Source: a virus
Taxonomy: Duplodnaviria > Heunggongvirae > Uroviricota > Caudoviricetes
Length of the DNA: 39,909 nucleotides
Reading direction: 5' to 3' (one strand)
IMG/VR virus record: IMGVR_UViG_2706794690_000014
Both the position numbers and the translations under genes were made by a program. How positions within the stretch are numbered: the stretch's first letter is position 1; each line of letters begins with the position of its first letter. This document shows, piece after piece, positions 10,755-18,144 of the stretch. The notes beneath the pieces are model-generated. The model was not told where the DNA came from. It saw nothing but the letters and a program-made list of their open reading frames with translations, and searched no databases.

Positions 10755-11255
10755 ATGCCAAAACTCCCCGCACCCCTGCGTAAAAAGCTGATTGCCCTTG
10801 TTCTGGCCGGAGCCGGGACGTTCACCATTGCCACGCACTACACCGGCTACTGGGAAGGGAAAGAAAACACCACGTACATTGATCCCACCGGCACCCCCAC
10901 CATCTGTTACGGCCATACCGGCCCGGATGTGAAACCGGGGATGACAAAAACTGATGAAGAGTGTCTGGAGCTGCTGGAAAAGGACATGAAATGGGCCTTT
11001 GCGGCTATCGATCGTCATGTTCAGGTGCCGCTTACCCGTGGTCAGACGGTGGCGCTGGCCTCCTGGATTTTCTGGGCCGGTGAAACGAACTTTCGCAACT
11101 CCACGCTCCTGCGCCTTATCAATGCCGGGCAGATGCCCGCGTCCTGTAAGCAGTATATCCGCTGGATTTATTCAAAGGGGGTAAAACTCCCCGGTCTTGA
11201 GGCCCGCCGTTCGGCGGATGAATGGTTATGTCGTTACGATTTGCCGAAAGTCTGA
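10755..11255 (+). CDS. lys: Endolysin (phage lysozyme) with N-terminal SAR-type signal anchor
   Basis: Catalytic E-x8-D-x5-T pattern (WEGKENTTYIDPTGTPTICYGHT); weakly hydrophobic Gly/Ala-rich N-terminus (LIALVLAGAGTFTIATHY). Confidence 0.8.
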   Translation: MPKLPAPLRKKLIALVLAGAGTFTIATHYTGYWEGKENTTYIDPTGTPTICYGHTGPDVKPGMTKTDEECLELLEKDMKWAFAAIDRHVQVPLTRGQTVALASWIFWAGETNFRNSTLLRLINAGQMPASCKQYIRWIYSKGVKLPGLEARRSADEWLCRYDLPKV

Positions 11256-11718: not shown

Positions 11719-11920
11719 ATGGCTGGCTGACTGCCTGGTCCCTCCCGCGCCGCAGCCGTTCACGTTTGGTGCATCGGTCACTTACAACCTGCAACTGCTG
11801 GCGGTGATTAAAAACTGCAACGTGGACAAGGCCAGCATCCGCCGTCTGGAGACACAGCGACAGCATGAATTTACTGATATGGCCGGAACGACTGCTGTTC
11901 CGGCAGGAAAGACGAAGTAA
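11549..11920 (+). CDS. Putative o-spanin (Rz1-like lipoprotein), overlapping the i-spanin in another frame
   Basis: Lipobox-like LTGC followed by a Pro-rich mature region (PVKPVPIPAEW...PPAPQP); begins inside the i-spanin and extends past it. Start uncertain. Confidence 0.5.
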   Translation: MKNSRTCSTARNSRALSAGHWQRCLLPLCLCLMMWLTGCGGPSVKYVPVKPVPIPAEWLADCLVPPAPQPFTFGASVTYNLQLLAVIKNCNVDKASIRRLETQRQHEFTDMAGTTAVPAGKTK

Positions 11921-11930
11921 GGAAAAAGGT

Positions 11931-12158
11931 ATGGATGATTCAGATTGTGCTCAGGCAGTCATGGAGCGTGCAACAGAACGCGCCCTTTGTGACCGGCTGA
12001 CACGTAAGCGCCGGGTGGCGGAGACACCGGGCAGGCGTGTATGCGCGGACTGCGGGGGTGACATTCCGGCTGCCCGTCTGGTTGCCGTGCCGGATGCCAT
12101 CCGTTGTGTGAACTGCCAGAACATCATGGAGGCCGGTCATGTGGGTCAGCATCGTTAA
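11931..12158 (+). CDS. TraR/DksA-family C4 zinc-finger protein
   Basis: CADCGGDIP...CVNC C4 motif in a ~75-aa protein, as in phage/plasmid TraR-like proteins; ATG at 11931. Confidence 0.6.
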   Translation: MDDSDCAQAVMERATERALCDRLTRKRRVAETPGRRVCADCGGDIPAARLVAVPDAIRCVNCQNIMEAGHVGQHR

Positions 12159-12450
12159 AGATTATGTCGTGCCGATCCTGTCGGCAACGGCCACAGCCGG
12201 GGGGATCTTCATGGCGCTGATGCGCAAAACCTTTGTCCCCCGCGAGGCCTTTGAAAAACTCTCCGACCGGGTTGAGCGGGTGGAGAGCCGGATTTCCGGC
12301 CTGCCCACGCAGCAGGAGGTGAACAGACTCAATATCGAAATCACCACCCTGCGCGGTGAGCTTAAGGCCACCAATGCCACCCTGAAATCCGTCTCCCATC
12401 AGAACGAACTGCTGCTGGAGCAGGCTGTAAGGAAAAAACACAATGAGTGA
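12139..12450 (+). CDS. Small membrane protein (TM plus coiled coil); possible lysis accessory
   Basis: N-terminal hydrophobic segment (VVPILSATATAGGIFMALM) followed by a coiled-coil-like region; located between the lysis and packaging genes. Confidence 0.45.
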   Translation: MWVSIVKDYVVPILSATATAGGIFMALMRKTFVPREAFEKLSDRVERVESRISGLPTQQEVNRLNIEITTLRGELKATNATLKSVSHQNELLLEQAVRKKHNE

Positions 12451-12733
12451 TTTCATTACTGAAGATCAGCGTCTTGTCATTCTGCGGTCGCTGGCGGATT
12501 ACAACGGCGAACTGGGCGAATCCGTGCTTCAGGACTGCCTGGATGATTACGGTCACCGCGTGTCCCGCGACACCGTTCATACCCACATTGCCTGGCTTGC
12601 CGAGCAGGGACTGGTGCGTAAGCGCACGCTTGTTAACGGTTATTTCATCGCTGAACTGACCGGCCGGGGTCAGGATGTGGCGGAAGGCCGCGCCACCGTT
12701 CCGGGTGTGAAGAAACCACGCGCAAGGGGGTAA
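12443..12733 (+). CDS. Hypothetical late protein
   Basis: 96-aa ORF coupled to its neighbours; no recognisable domain. Confidence 0.4.
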   Translation: MSDFITEDQRLVILRSLADYNGELGESVLQDCLDDYGHRVSRDTVHTHIAWLAEQGLVRKRTLVNGYFIAELTGRGQDVAEGRATVPGVKKPRARG

Positions 12734-12735
12734 CG

Positions 12736-13317
12736 ATGGATAAGCCAGCGCGTGGCCGTGTACGCAAGGTGGATTTGCTCCCCGACAGCATCCGTAAGCC
12801 GCTGCTGGAAATGCTGCGTGAAAAACGTCTGACGCAGGTCCAGATCCGCGAGGAAATCAACCGTCTGATCCGTGAAGCAGGTCTGCCGGAAGAGCAGCAG
12901 CTCTCACCGGCGGCCATCAGCCGGGAAGCCTCCCGTAATGAGCTGATTGCCCGTAATCTGCGTGATTTACGCGAGCAGACAAAAGCCATGATGGCCGAAC
13001 TGGGGGATAAGCCGACCGGTGAAACCACGGCACTGATTCTGGAGATGTCCCGTGCCCTGATGTACCGCCGTCTGCGTGCCGCCACCGAATCCCTGAACAG
13101 CGACAGCGATGTGGATATGCGCCTTATTAAGGACATCCTCCTGTCGGCACAGCGTGCAGAAAGTGCCGCCGAGCGCAGCATTAAGCGTGAAAAAGAAATC
13201 CGGGCCGCATTTGCTGAAGAGATGGCGAATGCGGTCACCGATGAGTTGCGCGGCGTGGATGGCATGAGCGAGCAGATCGAATTCCGTATCAGGCAGATGC
13301 TGCTGGGTAAGGCGTAG
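12736..13317 (+). CDS. Putative terminase small subunit / DNA-binding protein (Mu gp27-like)
   Basis: 193-aa charged helical protein two genes upstream of the large terminase, as in Mu. Confidence 0.5.
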   Translation: MDKPARGRVRKVDLLPDSIRKPLLEMLREKRLTQVQIREEINRLIREAGLPEEQQLSPAAISREASRNELIARNLRDLREQTKAMMAELGDKPTGETTALILEMSRALMYRRLRAATESLNSDSDVDMRLIKDILLSAQRAESAAERSIKREKEIRAAFAEEMANAVTDELRGVDGMSEQIEFRIRQMLLGKA

Positions 13318-13327
13318 GAGGTGAATC

Positions 13328-13576
13328 ATGGCAACAGATAACCGCTCACTGATGAGCAGTGCCCATCAGAAAGCATTCAGTCTTGCAACACAGTTACCTC
13401 CTGAAACCATAAAGGTATGTCGTGAGTTGACTGAACTCAGCATTGCCGGGGAAATATCCCTGGAACAACTGCATTCGCTGCTGGCAGAGGCTGCCACTGA
13501 TGAGTTGAGCGGCGTGGACGTGATGACTGAAGAGCTTGAGTCCCGAATCAAAAGCATTCTGACAGGTAAAGCATGA
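13328..13576 (+). CDS. Small protein paralogous to the C-terminus of the preceding gene
   Basis: C-terminal ~25 aa (DELSGVDVMTEELESRIKSILTGKA) parallel the upstream protein's C-terminus (DELRGVDGMSEQIEFRIRQMLLGKA); DNA is also similar. Confidence 0.45.
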   Translation: MATDNRSLMSSAHQKAFSLATQLPPETIKVCRELTELSIAGEISLEQLHSLLAEAATDELSGVDVMTEELESRIKSILTGKA

Positions 13577-15240
13577 TGAACAAAGCCAGAGAAACGTCGC
13601 CTTCACTGATGCAAATGACGCCTCCCCGCAAAATTGATCTGTCAGGTGAAAAAGCCCTGCTGGGCGTGGATGTGCCGGACAGCCTTGATTTGCCCGGTGA
13701 TATGCCGGTGTTTCTGGATTATCAGGCCCGCTGGTTTGCAGATGAAAGTCAGGTCTGCATCGCGGAGAAATCCCGCCGCACCGGTCTTACCTGGGCGGAA
13801 GCCGGGCGTAACGTCATTACTGCTGCAAAACCGAAGCGTCGTGGTGGCCGCAATGTGTTTTATGTGGGATCAAAGCAGGAGATGGCGCTGGAATATATTT
13901 CTGCCTGCGCGCTGTTCTCCCGTGCCTTTAACCAGCTGGCAGATGCTGATGTGTATGAGCAGACATTCTGGGATCGGGATAAAAAAGAAGAAATTTTGAC
14001 CTACATGATCCGCTTTCCGAACAGTGGATTCAAAATTCAGGCATTGTCTTCCCGTCCGTCAAACCTGCGCGGCCTTCAGGGGGATGTGGTGATTGATGAA
14101 GCCGCGTTCCACGAGTCACTGGATGAGCTTCTCAAGGCGGCAATGGCGCTCACTATGTGGGGCGCGCGCGTGCGTATTATCTCCACGCATAACGGCGTCG
14201 ATAATCTGTTTAATCAGTACATTCAGGAAGCCCGCGAGGGGCGCAAGGATTACAGCGTCCACCGCATAACCCTGGATGATGCCATTGCGGACGGGCTGTA
14301 CCGTCGTATCTGTTACGTCACCGATCAGGAATGGTCACCGGAAAGCGAGCAGAAATGGCGTGATGATCTCTACAAAAACGCCCCGACCCGTGAGGATGCC
14401 GACGAGGAATACGGCTGTATCCCGAAAAAATCCGGCGGTGCCTATATCCCCCACGCGCTTATTGAAATGGCGATGATCCGCGACATCCCGATTCTGACGT
14501 TTGAAGCCCCGGACAACTTCATCAGCCGTGCCGCATGGCTGCGTGAATCGGAAGTTTTAACCTGGTGTGAAGAACATTTAAAACCGCTTTTAGAGAAATT
14601 AAATCCCCGTTCCCGCTTCAGCTTCGGGGAAGACTTTGCCCGCACCGGTGACCTGTCCTGCTTTGTGCTGCTGGAAATCACCGAATCCCTGGCAAAGCGC
14701 GAGGTGTTTCGCGTGGAGCTGCGCAACCTGCCGTATGCCCAGCAGGAACAGGTGATGATGTACATCCTGACCCGCGTTCCGGCGCTGGTCGGTGCGGCGT
14801 TCGACGCCACCGGTAACGGCGGCTATCTGGCAGAGGCCGCACTGCTGGCCTTTGGCCCGGACATCATCGACTGCGTGATGTTGTCGCCGAAGTGGTACGG
14901 CGAGTGGATGCCAAAACTGAAAGCCGAGTTTGAAGATCAGAATATCCTCGTCGCCCGCCATCAGACCACGCTTGATGATTTGCGCCATGTGAAGGTAGTG
15001 AATGGTATCCCGCAAATCGACAAGGGGCGCACGAAGGACCAGAACGCAACGGCTGCGAACGCCCGCCGCCATGGTGATTTTGCCGTGGCGCTCTGTATGG
15101 CAAACCGGGCGTCATACATGGAGGGCTTCATCCTGGATGAATCAGCCTGTCAGGCGCTACAGGAGCGGTCGCGGGCAATGGAGGGCGGTTATCGTGATGA
15201 CGATGAGGCATATCATGAATTTGATCGGGGGGGCTGGTAG
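13573..15240 (+). CDS. Terminase large subunit (Mu gp28-like)
   Basis: 555-aa ORF directly upstream of the portal; size, position and ATPase/nuclease-like composition fit TerL. Confidence 0.8.
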   Translation: MMNKARETSPSLMQMTPPRKIDLSGEKALLGVDVPDSLDLPGDMPVFLDYQARWFADESQVCIAEKSRRTGLTWAEAGRNVITAAKPKRRGGRNVFYVGSKQEMALEYISACALFSRAFNQLADADVYEQTFWDRDKKEEILTYMIRFPNSGFKIQALSSRPSNLRGLQGDVVIDEAAFHESLDELLKAAMALTMWGARVRIISTHNGVDNLFNQYIQEAREGRKDYSVHRITLDDAIADGLYRRICYVTDQEWSPESEQKWRDDLYKNAPTREDADEEYGCIPKKSGGAYIPHALIEMAMIRDIPILTFEAPDNFISRAAWLRESEVLTWCEEHLKPLLEKLNPRSRFSFGEDFARTGDLSCFVLLEITESLAKREVFRVELRNLPYAQQEQVMMYILTRVPALVGAAFDATGNGGYLAEAALLAFGPDIIDCVMLSPKWYGEWMPKLKAEFEDQNILVARHQTTLDDLRHVKVVNGIPQIDKGRTKDQNATAANARRHGDFAVALCMANRASYMEGFILDESACQALQERSRAMEGGYRDDDEAYHEFDRGGW

Positions 15241-16829
15241 TGGGACGCATCATTGATACTGACGGAAAACCTTTCTCCTTTGACCCGGAGATGCAGAGTG
15301 CCGCGCTGGATATTCCGCAGATTGCCAGCCGTTATATTGAACATCCGGCTTCGGGTATCACCCCGAACCGGGCGGCGCAGTGCCTTCGCGGGGCTGAACG
15401 TGGCGATCTGATTGCCCAGTCCGATCTGGCCGCTGATATTGAAGAAAAGGACACCCACCTTTTTGCGGAGCTGGGCAAGCGACGTCTTGCCATTCAGGGG
15501 GTGCCATGGAGTATTGAGCCGCCACCGAACGCCAGCGCGAATGAGAAAAAGGACGCGGAAATGCTCGACGAATATCTGCATTCCGCAGACTGGTTTGATG
15601 CCATGCTGTTTGACGCCACGGATGCCATCCTGAAGGGCTATTCCTGCATGGAAATTGAGCACGGGATGCTCGGTAAAATGCACATCATCCGCGCCATCCG
15701 CTGGCGTGACAGCGGGCATTTCTGCCTTAACCCGGATGATTTGAGCGAACTGCGGCTGCGTGACGGCAGCCATGCCGGGGTGGCGTTTCAGCCCTTTGGC
15801 TGGATAGTGCATCAGTCGCGTTCACGCACCGGCTACGGTGGTGCGACGGGGCTTGTCAGAACGCTTATCTGGCCGTTCATTTTCAAAAACTATTCCGTGC
15901 GCGATCTGGCGGAATTTCTGGAGGTGTACGGCCTGCCAATGAAGGTCGGGAAATACCCGTCCGGGGCAACACCGGAGCAGAAAAGTGCCCTGATGCGGGC
16001 GGTGATGGATATCGGGCGACGTACAGGCGGGATCATCCCGGCCGGGATGTCGCTGGAGTTTCAGGCGGCAGCGAACGGTCAGGCCGATCCGTTTGAAACC
16101 ATGATTTCGTGGGGTGAGCGTTCCATCTCCAAAGCAATACTCGGCGGCACGCTGACCACAGAAGCCGGAGACAAAGGCGCGCGCTCGCTGGGTGAGGTGC
16201 ATAACGAGGTGCGCCGGGAAATCAGGGATTCTGATTTACGCCAGCTGGCTGCAACCCTGAACCGCGATCTGGTGTATCCGCTGTATGCCCTGAACACCGC
16301 CCACGCCATTGATATCCGTCGCCTGCCGCGTATCTGTTTCCAGACCAAAGAACCGGGGGATATCACCAAAATAGCCAGTGCGGTGATGCAACTCAGTGCG
16401 GGGATGGATATTCCTGATCCCTGGGTACGGGATCAGACCGGTATTCCACAGCCCACGCCCGGTGAAGCCATATTCCGTGTCCGTCAGAGCAGTAATGAAC
16501 CGGCCATGCCTGACAGGGAAACGCTACCGGAAAAACAGGAAAAGACAGAACAGACGGCGCTTTCAGCCCGACTGCCGGAAGCGAAAAACACGCCGCGTGA
16601 TGAACTGGACGACATGGGGGACGCGGTGCCTGCCCGCCGCTTACAGGAGGCCATCGATCCGGTGCTGGAGCCGGTCATTGATGTCATCAGAACGCGGGGG
16701 CTGGCGGAGGCACTGGCAGACCTGCCTGCCCTTTACCGTGAAATGGATGATTCCCGCCTGATGACGCTGCTCAGTGATGCCATGTTTGCTGCGGAAATGA
16801 AGGGGATGCTGGATGGCTCAGGGGATTGA
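15240..16829 (+). CDS. Portal protein (Mu gp29-like)
   Basis: 529-aa ORF between terminase and the F-like head gene. Confidence 0.8.
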   Translation: MGRIIDTDGKPFSFDPEMQSAALDIPQIASRYIEHPASGITPNRAAQCLRGAERGDLIAQSDLAADIEEKDTHLFAELGKRRLAIQGVPWSIEPPPNASANEKKDAEMLDEYLHSADWFDAMLFDATDAILKGYSCMEIEHGMLGKMHIIRAIRWRDSGHFCLNPDDLSELRLRDGSHAGVAFQPFGWIVHQSRSRTGYGGATGLVRTLIWPFIFKNYSVRDLAEFLEVYGLPMKVGKYPSGATPEQKSALMRAVMDIGRRTGGIIPAGMSLEFQAAANGQADPFETMISWGERSISKAILGGTLTTEAGDKGARSLGEVHNEVRREIRDSDLRQLAATLNRDLVYPLYALNTAHAIDIRRLPRICFQTKEPGDITKIASAVMQLSAGMDIPDPWVRDQTGIPQPTPGEAIFRVRQSSNEPAMPDRETLPEKQEKTEQTALSARLPEAKNTPRDELDDMGDAVPARRLQEAIDPVLEPVIDVIRTRGLAEALADLPALYREMDDSRLMTLLSDAMFAAEMKGMLDGSGD

Positions 16830-18144
16830 TTTAGGTTATGCCGCCACGCTTCCCTCAAAAGAGACGGTGGCATACTTCCGCGCCAAAGGGGCGCATATCA
16901 GCTGGAACTGGTTCGAAACAGACGCGGATGTTCATGCCCGCTCATTCACGGCAGCAAAAACGGCACGGCTGGATGTGGTAACCACATTACAGGCCGAAGT
17001 GCAGCGGGCCATTGATGAGGGGATTTCACAGAAAGAATTTATCCGCACACTGACGCCACGCCTGCAAAAGCTGGGATGGTGGGGAAAGCAGATTGTGGTG
17101 GACAGCGACGGTAACGCGGAAGAAGTGCAGCAGGGCAGTCCCCGTCGTCTGGCGCTGATTTACAACGTGAACACCCGTGTGGCTTACAATGCCGGGCGTT
17201 ACACGCAGATGATGAACAACACGGACACGCATCCGTTCTGGCAGTATGTGGCGGTCATGGACAGCCGTACCCGCCCGTCGCATTCCGCCCTTAACGGTCT
17301 GGTATTCCGCTATGACGATCCGTTCTGGAAAACACACTACCCGCCCAATGGCTGGAACTGCCGCTGCCGTGTGCGGCCATTGTCTCAGGCCCGTCTGGAT
17401 GCAATGGGGTTATCCGTTTCATCCGGTGAGGATCATCTCTCCACCCGCAATGTTGAGGCTGGCGTGGATAAACAGACCGGAGAAGTCAGAGAAATGCCGG
17501 TGACCACATATTCAGATGGCGCCAGAACCATGACACCGGATGTGGGCTGGTCATATAACCCCGGCTCGGCAGCGTTCGGCACAGACCAGGCGCTGATCCG
17601 CAAACTGATCGAGGTGAAAAGCCCGGCGTTACGGGAAATGGTGGTTCAGGAGATGAACAACAGCCCGGAGCGGCAGCTGGCGTTCCGCATCTGGGCAAAA
17701 AACATCATGCAGACCCGGCGAGGTGGTAACGATATCCGCACGCTGGGCTTTATGACTGAAAGCATTGCGCAGGCAGTGGAAAGCCGGACGGGAACGCCAC
17801 CGGCCCGCCTGCTGGCGATGAGCGGTAAAAATGTGCTCCATGCGGACAGTGTGAAACATCAGAATGACGGCATCGCTCTGACGCCGGAGGACTTCGGGCG
17901 CTTACCGGCAATGCTGGCAAGGCCAAAAGCGGTACTGTGGGACAAACGGCACAACAATCTGATGTATATCGTGGAAAATCAGGATGGCAGTGTGCAGATT
18001 GCCGTTAATGCACCGTACAGTCTGAAACGTCAGCCCGACAAACTGGATGTGATTGTGAATGCTTACCGGGTTATCAATATGGATAAGCTGAAATCGGATA
18101 TCCGGGGCGGAATGCTTGAGGTGCTGGAAGGACAAATTGATTAA
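16813..18144 (+). CDS. Head morphogenesis protein (Mu F / gp30-like)
   Basis: Conserved core DSRTRPSHSALNG...NGWNCRCRV typical of the phage Mu F family. Confidence 0.8.
   Translation: MAQGIDLGYAATLPSKETVAYFRAKGAHISWNWFETDADVHARSFTAAKTARLDVVTTLQAEVQRAIDEGISQKEFIRTLTPRLQKLGWWGKQIVVDSDGNAEEVQQGSPRRLALIYNVNTRVAYNAGRYTQMMNNTDTHPFWQYVAVMDSRTRPSHSALNGLVFRYDDPFWKTHYPPNGWNCRCRVRPLSQARLDAMGLSVSSGEDHLSTRNVEAGVDKQTGEVREMPVTTYSDGARTMTPDVGWSYNPGSAAFGTDQALIRKLIEVKSPALREMVVQEMNNSPERQLAFRIWAKNIMQTRRGGNDIRTLGFMTESIAQAVESRTGTPPARLLAMSGKNVLHADSVKHQNDGIALTPEDFGRLPAMLARPKAVLWDKRHNNLMYIVENQDGSVQIAVNAPYSLKRQPDKLDVIVNAYRVINMDKLKSDIRGGMLEVLEGQID

Follow-up and report, generated by a model that had tools for sequence, protein, structure and literature searches.

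Introduction

Small proteins that exploit the interfaces of the small and large terminase subunits, TerS and TerL, are known from satellites, whose terminase hijackers (SaPI TerS and Ppi, PICI Rpp) redirect or block packaging. In lambda and P22 the C-terminus of TerS binds the N-terminal ~20-60 residues of TerL (PMC9611059). Phage Mu itself has gp27 and gp28 adjoining directly across a 7-nucleotide (nt) gap, and a literature search on the biochemistry of Mu gp27/gp28 and on DUF3486 found nothing relevant. Here, we analysed the virus record IMGVR_UViG_2706794690_000014, a stretch of 39,909 nt (the window) that looks like a complete Mu-like prophage of Escherichia coli. Between its gp27 (terS) and terL genes lies an open reading frame (ORF) of 82 amino acids (aa), ORF82, which is shown to be chimeric: the first ~55 residues stem from a small fast-evolving protein family, and a gp27 allele supplied the C-terminal helix-loop-helix tail that makes up the last 28-31. 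Databases already list the 82-aa protein as hypothetical (PHROG 30922, RefSeq), and no account of its chimerism or of the family at this junction was found in the literature searched.

With Mu gp27 and other DUF3486 proteins, ORF82 shares a homologous tail and a stop codon overlapping the TerL start, but its tail has lost three invariant residues and is about ten times less constrained. It resembles PHROG 30922 and the untailed proteins ORF65 and ORF67 in its N-domain motif, its position between gp27 and TerL and its Shine-Dalgarno sequence (SD), whereas the TerS tail is confined to the E. coli members of 79-82 aa. Unlike the satellite hijackers, it is phage-encoded in a late operon, has no homology to them and displays no sign of interface selection. 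The variable cassette described here takes in exactly the terS 3′ end and the initial ~20 codons of terL, segments that are in mutual contact in the Nu1-gpA pair of lambda and the gp3-gp2 pair of P22 (PMC9611059); in contrast to these, the TerL leader is neutral here and the tail is present a second time on a third ORF, features not described for lambda or P22. Morons and other ORFs at mosaic joints are likewise small, compositionally distinct inserts that are present or absent between conserved genes (here in 25 of ~230 genomes), but ORF82 has neither its own promoter nor its own terminator, continues in frame into a piece of a neighbour's family and would be translationally linked on both sides.

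The TerS tail of ORF82

The junction holds the following features.

12736-13317, + strand: gp27, small terminase (TerS), 193 aa (PF11985, PHROG 426)
13222-13317, + strand: repeat copy 1, the genuine TerS tail (gp27 residues 163-193, MANAVTDELRGVDGMSEQIEFRIRQMLLGKA) with stop codon
13317-13323, + strand: SD of ORF82, GGAGGTG, sharing the final base of the gp27 stop codon and ending 4 nt ahead of the ATG
13328-13576, + strand: ORF82, chimeric ORF, 82 aa (PHROG 30922)
13328-13492, + strand: N-domain of ORF82 (residues 1-~55), junction small-protein family
13481-13576, + strand: repeat copy 2, the TerS-like tail of ORF82 (residues 52-82, LAEAATDELSGVDVMTEELESRIKSILTGKA) with stop codon
13573-13578, + strand: coupling junction ATGATG, in which the ORF82 stop TGA (13574-13576) overlaps two candidate TerL starts (13573 and 13576)
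13576-13635, + strand: hypervariable N-terminal leader of TerL (~17-20 codons), co-segregating with the junction allele
13573-15240 (as in the ORF list), + strand: large terminase TerL, gp28 homologue (PHROG 2, synteny)

The gp27 of the window matches Pfam PF11985 (Phage_Mu_Gp27, DUF3486) over its full length (116 bits, 3e-33) and PHROG 426, 'terminase small subunit' (E=2e-54), and is 57% identical to Mu gp27. TerL matches PHROG 2, 'terminase large subunit' (E=5e-43), is syntenic with Mu gp28 and is followed by a Mu-type portal gene (PF06074).

A preliminary description of the locus had noted that the C-terminus of ORF82 resembles that of the preceding 193-aa protein at both the protein and the DNA level. 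Its ORF coordinates were confirmed and formal alignment bears out the resemblance, since residues 163-193 of gp27 and 52-82 of ORF82 align without gaps with 18/31 identical (58%) and 24/31 positive positions (BLASTP, E=3e-10); the shared segment measures 31 aa, not the ~25 aa first estimated. In register, 63/96 nucleotides agree between 13222-13317 and 13481-13576 (19/20 in the core), compared with 25.4 +/- 4.2 matches in shuffled sequences, of which 0/20,000 reached 63. No second site for the 96-nt repeat with at least 45/96 matches occurs anywhere in the window on either strand. The similarity ends abruptly, as in-register identity 5′ of the 31 shared codons is at chance level, and homology in register of ORF82 residues 1-51 to gp27 residues 112-162 was ruled out on this basis. 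ORF82 has neither the N-terminal region of gp27 (the KVDLLP...IR motif and short helix-turn-helix-like helices) nor its long central helices; only residues 52-82 align. Membership of PF11985 is a whole-protein match to a 173-position profile at a gathering score of 28 bits, which ORF82 does not reach: hmmscan gave no hit to this profile at E<=10, with HMMER filters dropping most matches above about E=0.1.

The tail pattern of gp27, consisting of a helix end, a G-containing loop and a terminal helix ending LG(K/I)A, is found in about 50 Mu-like prophages, and the conserved tail reads ...ELRGxDGMSE..E..I...LLGKA with a stop overlapping the TerL start. The ORF82 tail is 53% identical to the Mu gp27 tail and keeps 7/10 of the gp27-invariant positions, invariance being judged on 12 aligned gp27 homologues that are all at least 73% identical to the window gp27. 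The changes R172->S, G176->V and S178->T (gp27 numbering) hit three of the invariant residues, and all ORF82 alleles have a replacement at each of them.

Single-sequence AlphaFold2 (AF2) predicts four helices in ORF82 (residues 11-20, 25-39, 45-60 and 67-79) at a predicted local distance difference test score (pLDDT) of 74, with the tail spanning the last part of helix 3, a loop and helix 4. The gp27 model, based on a shallow 12-sequence alignment, has a helix at 128-171, a loop and a helix at 179-189; at its pLDDT of 54 secondary structure alone is usable, and at that level the tail arrangement matches that of ORF82. Foldseek with the ORF82 model against the PDB returned generic or designed helical bundles only, none at E<=0.001, and a PDB sequence search with gp27 gave no significant match.

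A protein family at the gp27-TerL junction

Residues 2-82 of ORF82 match positions 2-82/82 of the PHROG 30922 profile (E=7e-52), a family of unknown function, while Pfam returned just one irrelevant sub-threshold match (HIGH_NTase1, E=0.019). An exhaustive HMMER search with an ORF82 profile over 1.84 billion representatives gave 4 hits, all of the same family or frameshift variants, and hence no remote relatives by that route. The informative extra hit was P0012, a 67-aa E. coli protein (ORF67, E=1e-10) that shares the SD and residues 1-~55 with ORF82, ends ...AHAQSSRRGKT and has no terminase tail.

We inspected by eye the gp27-TerL junction at 59 loci in GTDB species representatives, and the wider family was then re-searched with a mixed profile. 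Homologues of the ORF82 N-domain were recognized in a 65-aa junction ORF of Citrobacter braakii (BLASTP E=4e-7) and in a 57-aa junction ORF of a decayed Apirhabdus prophage, and the mixed profile added at least 15 Salmonella clusters of 65 aa and a 57-aa protein of Mixta (E 1e-9 to 1e-23). Junction-family members of 57-67 aa are accordingly present in a sub-clade of the Mu-like prophages of Enterobacterales, with representatives in E. coli, Salmonella, Citrobacter and Mixta/Apirhabdus. Wherever the context was fetched (L013, L017, L020, L076-79 and the window), the gene is flanked by gp27 and TerL, shares their strand and has its own SD. The shared N-domain motif is L-x-S-x-A-H-x-x-A-F...C-R...I, and ORF82 belongs to the family by its N-terminal similarity of ~45-55 residues, its gp27-TerL position and its own SD. 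The TerS tail is present only in the E. coli members of 79-82 aa; the others end after the third helix (...LEDKVKKV or ...SSRRGKT), and no TerS-tail similarity was found in the Salmonella, Citrobacter and Mixta members or in the unrelated junction ORFs described below.

ORF82 also differs from its surroundings in composition. Its GC content is 0.49 and its third-codon-position GC (GC3) 0.48, as compared with 0.58 and 0.67 in gp27; the N-domain has a GC of 0.48 vs 0.58 in the flanks, and GC3 is 0.55 in the ORF82 tail vs 0.81 in the genuine gp27 tail.

Two N-terminal allele types of ORF82 were observed, MATDNRSLMSSAHQK and ME(K/T)NIRALII(S/R)AR(H/R)E (13328-13380 vs L002 2511-2563, L007 and L008). 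They are ~68% identical over 50 nt inside surroundings of 95% identity and amount to a further, nested patch of mosaicism. Other Mu-like lineages have small ORFs of unrelated sequence at this junction, namely a 64-aa ORF in Marinobacterium (L032 3067-3261), a 68-aa ORF in Vibrio/Enterovibrio (L066/L067 3082-3288) and an 84-aa ORF in Endozoicomonas (L068 3055-3309), which argues that the terS-terL joint is a recurrent insertion point. A larger junction insert of ~630 bp, found in a Mixta-like assembly (L079 3001-3624, Logan SRR35949625) and in Apirhabdus (L020 3021-3678), contains the 57-aa family member, a second ORF of 65 aa (MANEKIDYKSS...) and an antisense 65-aa ORF (MKEKLTIDQKLQ...).

Junction alleles and the origin of the chimera

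The prophage family is present in about 230 of 5,426 complete E. coli genomes and ORF82 in 25 of them; in the remaining genomes with this prophage family, its sole match is the gp27 3′ end. Three alleles of the junction were distinguished. Allele A (about 206 genomes) has gp27, ending ...SEQLESRIKGILLGKA, joined straight to TerL through an overlap of stop and start codons (TGATG). Allele B (25 genomes) has gp27, ORF82 and TerL in this order, with the SD right after the gp27 stop. Allele C (locus L013) has gp27, the tail-less ORF67, a 120-nt spacer and TerL; it was seen in raw-read (Logan) assemblies only, with no match in complete E. coli genomes and phage records. TerL begins M(N/S)KA(R/K)E(T/K)SPSL...PPRKIDLS in allele B and MNNAEELSPLLTNTVSTRKIDLA in allele A. 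The comparison with related prophages that the preliminary description had proposed thus finds the small ORF itself in allele B only (25 of ~230), and N-domain homologues in other genera.

The gp27 of alleles B and C ends ...SEQIEFRI(R/K)QMLLGKA (window 13270-13314, residues 179-193), and nearly all other gp27 homologues end SE(E/Q)LE(A/S)RI(K/R)G(I/V)L(L/M)GKA. This Phe has also been gained by some ORF82 alleles (LEFRIK), perhaps by gene conversion between the two tails or through a C->T change that recurred.

Aligned with allele A, the window is 93-100% identical at the nucleotide level on both sides of the junction, and identity collapses between about 13262 and 13620. This divergent patch takes in ~18 codons at the gp27 3′ end, ORF82 and ~17 codons at the start of TerL. 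The ORF82 tail is nearer to the allele-A gp27 tail (22/31 aa, 71%) than to that of its own neighbour (18/31). Within the last 120 nt of allele-A gp27, the upstream 60 nt have their best match in the window gp27 (54/60), whereas the final 60 nt are nearer to the ORF82 tail (48/60) than to the window gp27 (41/60), and this match runs on into the TerL start. The earlier view of ORF82 as a partial duplicate of the preceding gene therefore holds for the tail, which is a true copy of a small-terminase C-terminus, and is incomplete for the gene as a whole, given that ORF82 has an N-domain family of its own and that its tail is nearer to other gp27 alleles.

N-domain homologues without a tail, together with a tail nearer to the gp27 of ORF82-less prophages, point to a chimera of inter-allele recombination and not to a local tandem duplication. 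ORF82 thus combines the N-domain of a junction-family protein with the tail and the terS-terL joint of an A-like terS allele. The join lies at a stretch where both parents encode '(L/M/V)-A-x-A', so that the third helix of the N-domain continues into the TerS helix end, and the sequence at this point fits microhomology recombination. As to the order of events, either allele B is a recombinant of C-like and A-like alleles or recombination between the two tail copies of B deleted the insert and produced allele A.

Selective constraint

Synonymous and nonsynonymous changes were counted among six distinct B alleles.

ORF82, whole: 16 synonymous, 33 nonsynonymous
gp27, whole: 53 synonymous, 9 nonsynonymous
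TerL, codons 21-554: 95 synonymous, 19 nonsynonymous
ORF82 tail: 7 synonymous, 9 nonsynonymous
gp27 tail: 17 synonymous, 2 nonsynonymous
TerL, first 20 codons: 2 synonymous, 7 nonsynonymous

ORF82 does not differ from the neutral expectation of 25% synonymous changes (binomial p=0.25) but differs strongly from both gp27 and TerL (Fisher p about 1e-8). Its tail, the putative TerL interface, shows no sign of purifying selection and is distinct from the gp27 tail in this respect (Fisher p=0.009); one allele even has Leu70->Pro in the terminal helix. Eight added IMG/VR loci gave the same pattern (15:33 for ORF82, 51:9 for gp27), and segregating sites are spread over the three codon positions in ORF82 (14/16/18) as opposed to gp27 (6/3/51). 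The near-neutral drift of ORF82 including the copied tail suggests that the tail is most likely a passenger of recombination. No indels were found in ORF82 among about 20 loci, and it is an annotated coding sequence in the RefSeq records examined.

Expression signals and the TerL start

Overlap of the gp27 stop with the TerL start (gap -1 or -4) is the rule in about 50 Mu-like prophages, and both ORF82 and the ORF65 of Salmonella and Citrobacter reproduce this overlap with TerL. Relatives have only the second ATG of the window's ATGATG (TGATG overlap), and the true TerL start, judged from the sequence, is probably 13576, with a 1-nt overlap with the ORF82 stop, and not the listed 13573. All ORF82 alleles keep a purine-rich SD variant, as do the homologues from Salmonella, Citrobacter and Mixta. 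A consensus scan of 12400-14000 found no sigma-70-type promoter on either strand and one terminator-like site on the + strand, at 13694-13708 inside TerL, with none flanking ORF82.

The TGA/ATG overlap, the SD and the absence of a flanking terminator place ORF82 in a position to relay translational coupling between TerS and TerL. By carrying in the 3′ end of terS, the fusion would have let ORF82 inherit the ancestral stop/start overlap with TerL; translation would proceed from gp27 over the strong SD into ORF82 and through TGATG into TerL, with ORF82 presumably relaying a coupling that is normally direct.

The TerL leader is 61-68% identical at the nucleotide level to that of ORF82-less alleles, as compared with 93-100% further downstream. 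Alleles A, B and C have three unrelated leaders before the conserved PRKIDL motif (L001 2419-2480; L013 5324-5390). The drift of this leader (2:7) was unexpected since the equivalent N-terminus of P22 TerL binds TerS.

A hairpin at 13341-13360 was considered as an element and dropped, as its z-scores across alleles (-1.5, -2.7, -0.6 and +0.3) gave no consistent gain over shuffled sequences. The palindrome itself lies a few codons into the small ORF (also at L013 5016-5038 and about L002 2527-2547), and its stem sequence differs by N-terminal allele type. The stem is 10 bp and GC-rich in allele C and 7-8 bp in the others; it may be due to chance.

Interpretation and alternative explanations

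Taken together, we consider it probable that ORF82 is a chimeric accessory ORF made by recombination, whose tail is kept as a passenger of the coupled terS-terL joint and not for TerL binding. The copied tail would on this account have arrived with the recombination event and would not constitute a conserved TerL-docking module. Purifying selection on the N-domain family is only weak. With its almost neutral evolution, ORF82 is more probably a by-product of phage mosaicism than a new regulator of packaging.

Several observations weigh against this explanation. ORF82 is intact in all ~20 loci (7 distinct DNA alleles), which is compatible with some selection; the probability that 49 neutral changes would introduce no stop is about 0.17, so intactness is not significant alone. 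The N-domain family persists across genera at saturated synonymous divergence (dS 1.3-2.0) with an omega of about 0.3-0.5 (Salmonella vs Citrobacter ~0.3), and must be regarded as a real, weakly constrained gene and not as junk. The invariant positions kept in the tail leave room for residual TerL affinity. The 120-nt spacer before TerL in allele C implies that TerL is apparently expressible without any overlap. Finally, allele A could be a deletion derivative of B, and the chimeric gp27 3′ end fits that order equally well.

It is rather unlikely that the N-domain family including ORF82 is a fast-evolving accessory effector (anti-defence, superinfection exclusion or anti-satellite) acting independently of the terminase, with the junction as a permissive site and the tail as baggage. 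Persistence of the family across genera under the constraint just mentioned and its many Salmonella variants would fit such a role, as would a high turnover expected of an arms-race gene, a GC content below that of the flanks as in morons and the unrelated small ORFs at the same junction elsewhere (L032, L066/67, L068, L079). However, ORF82 has no Pfam or PDB-fold match and its sole PHROGs match, 30922, has no known function; neutrality is not rejected within the E. coli B alleles, and the gene has no promoter or terminator of its own.

The preliminary description had proposed that the tail makes ORF82 a competing or adaptor module for TerL, which is reasonable a priori given the contact between TerS and TerL in lambda and P22 (PMC9611059). 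We regard a functional TerL-binding module, acting as a competitor, adaptor or third terminase subunit that would tune packaging or block hijacking, as unlikely. The homology of the tail is real and its helix-loop-helix pattern and most invariant positions are kept, the variable cassette is exactly the TerS tail plus the TerL N-terminal leader with one leader per junction allele, the B/C-type gp27 has an atypical terminal helix (IEFRIRQML), and ORF82 sits in the same operon behind a strong SD. Against this, the tail is near neutral (7:9) and significantly unlike the real tail (17:2), it tolerates the L70P allele in its terminal helix, and R172, G176 and S178 are replaced in every ORF82 allele. 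The TerL leader is itself unconstrained (2:7), tail-less members occur in Salmonella, Citrobacter and E. coli allele C, and about 90% of the prophages of this family do without ORF82.

The more specific proposal that ORF82, perhaps with the whole junction family, is a hitherto unrecognized third component of the Mu-type terminase, a small helical protein with the captured TerS tail seated on the TerL N-terminus, appears doubtful, more so than TerL binding as such. Possible roles of such a component would be to limit premature TerL activity, to exclude satellite or competitor TerS, or to mask TerL from terminase-sensing immune receptors; if it exists, the gp27 helix IEFRIRQML and the allele-specific TerL leader would be co-adaptations to ORF82.

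That ORF82 is an untranslated or functionless recombination scar, open by chance, is very improbable. Its substitutions are neutral-like, the chance of remaining open through 49 changes is appreciable as given above, and frameshifted variants (P0010, P0011) occur in read assemblies; but a good SD is kept in all alleles, about 20 loci are free of indels, the overlap of the ORF82 stop with the TerL start is conserved, other genera also keep the homologous ORFs open and the single-sequence AF2 model has four confident helices.

A local tandem duplication of the neighbouring gp27 3′ end, with the upstream 50 codons diverged or arisen de novo, is suggested by the adjacent, directly oriented copies and is hardly tenable, being already contradicted by tail-less homologues of the N-terminal 55 residues at the same locus (other genera, allele C), a tail nearer to another allele of gp27, the lack of in-register similarity 5′ of the shared 31 codons and a GC3 of the copy of 0.55 vs 0.81 in the neighbour tail.

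Genetic context

ORF82 lies in the late operon of the prophage, which is putatively of the "Sp18-like" type. The surrounding genes are as follows.

10755-11255: lysozyme, late operon
between the lysozyme and TraR/DksA genes: spanin-like ORFs
11865-12158: TraR/DksA-type C4 zinc-finger protein (PF01258)
12139-12450: DUF2730 protein, late operon
12443-12733: gp26-like winged-helix protein, late operon
15240-16829: Mu-type portal (PF06074)
16813-18144: MuF-like protein, after the portal

The TraR/DksA gene, between the spanins and DUF2730, holds approximately the place of Mu gp24, and its annotated starts vary in relatives (75, 90 or 97 aa). The MuF-like protein has a C-terminal MuF_C domain (PF18819, residues 347-429), and the first 17 nt of its gene lie within the end of the portal gene. 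In one Logan assembly the gp26-like winged-helix protein reads through into gp27 to give a 291-aa product (P0031; 96 + 2 + 193 aa), with 'VT' replacing the stop/start region. This may reflect a sequencing error or a genuine gp26-TerS fusion; in both cases it is a hint that gp26 and the terminase act together.

An Arg/Ser-rich ORF of 206 aa on the minus strand (12645-13265) runs antisense over almost all of gp27 and is open in the relatives L001 and L013 too; it is most likely a shadow of gp27 codon usage and no gene. The minus-strand ORFs at 12967-13329, 13366-13557 and 13394-13606 were, like it, treated as coding-strand shadows.

Significance

Should the tail bind TerL, a terminase type that is structurally and biochemically undescribed would have a natural dominant-negative or adaptor peptide; the present evidence does not favour this. 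The practical value lies mainly in annotation, as ORF82 should not be called a terminase subunit, and in a useful case study of gene birth. For the biology of Mu-like phages, ORF82 represents a clean and datable case of phage mosaicism building a new protein, in which an accessory ORF was fused, in a manner resembling exon shuffling, to a fragment of an essential neighbour. The fusion site is a junction where translational coupling constrains which recombinants survive, and the terS-terL joint of Mu-like phages is thereby marked as a recurrent point of small-gene insertion.

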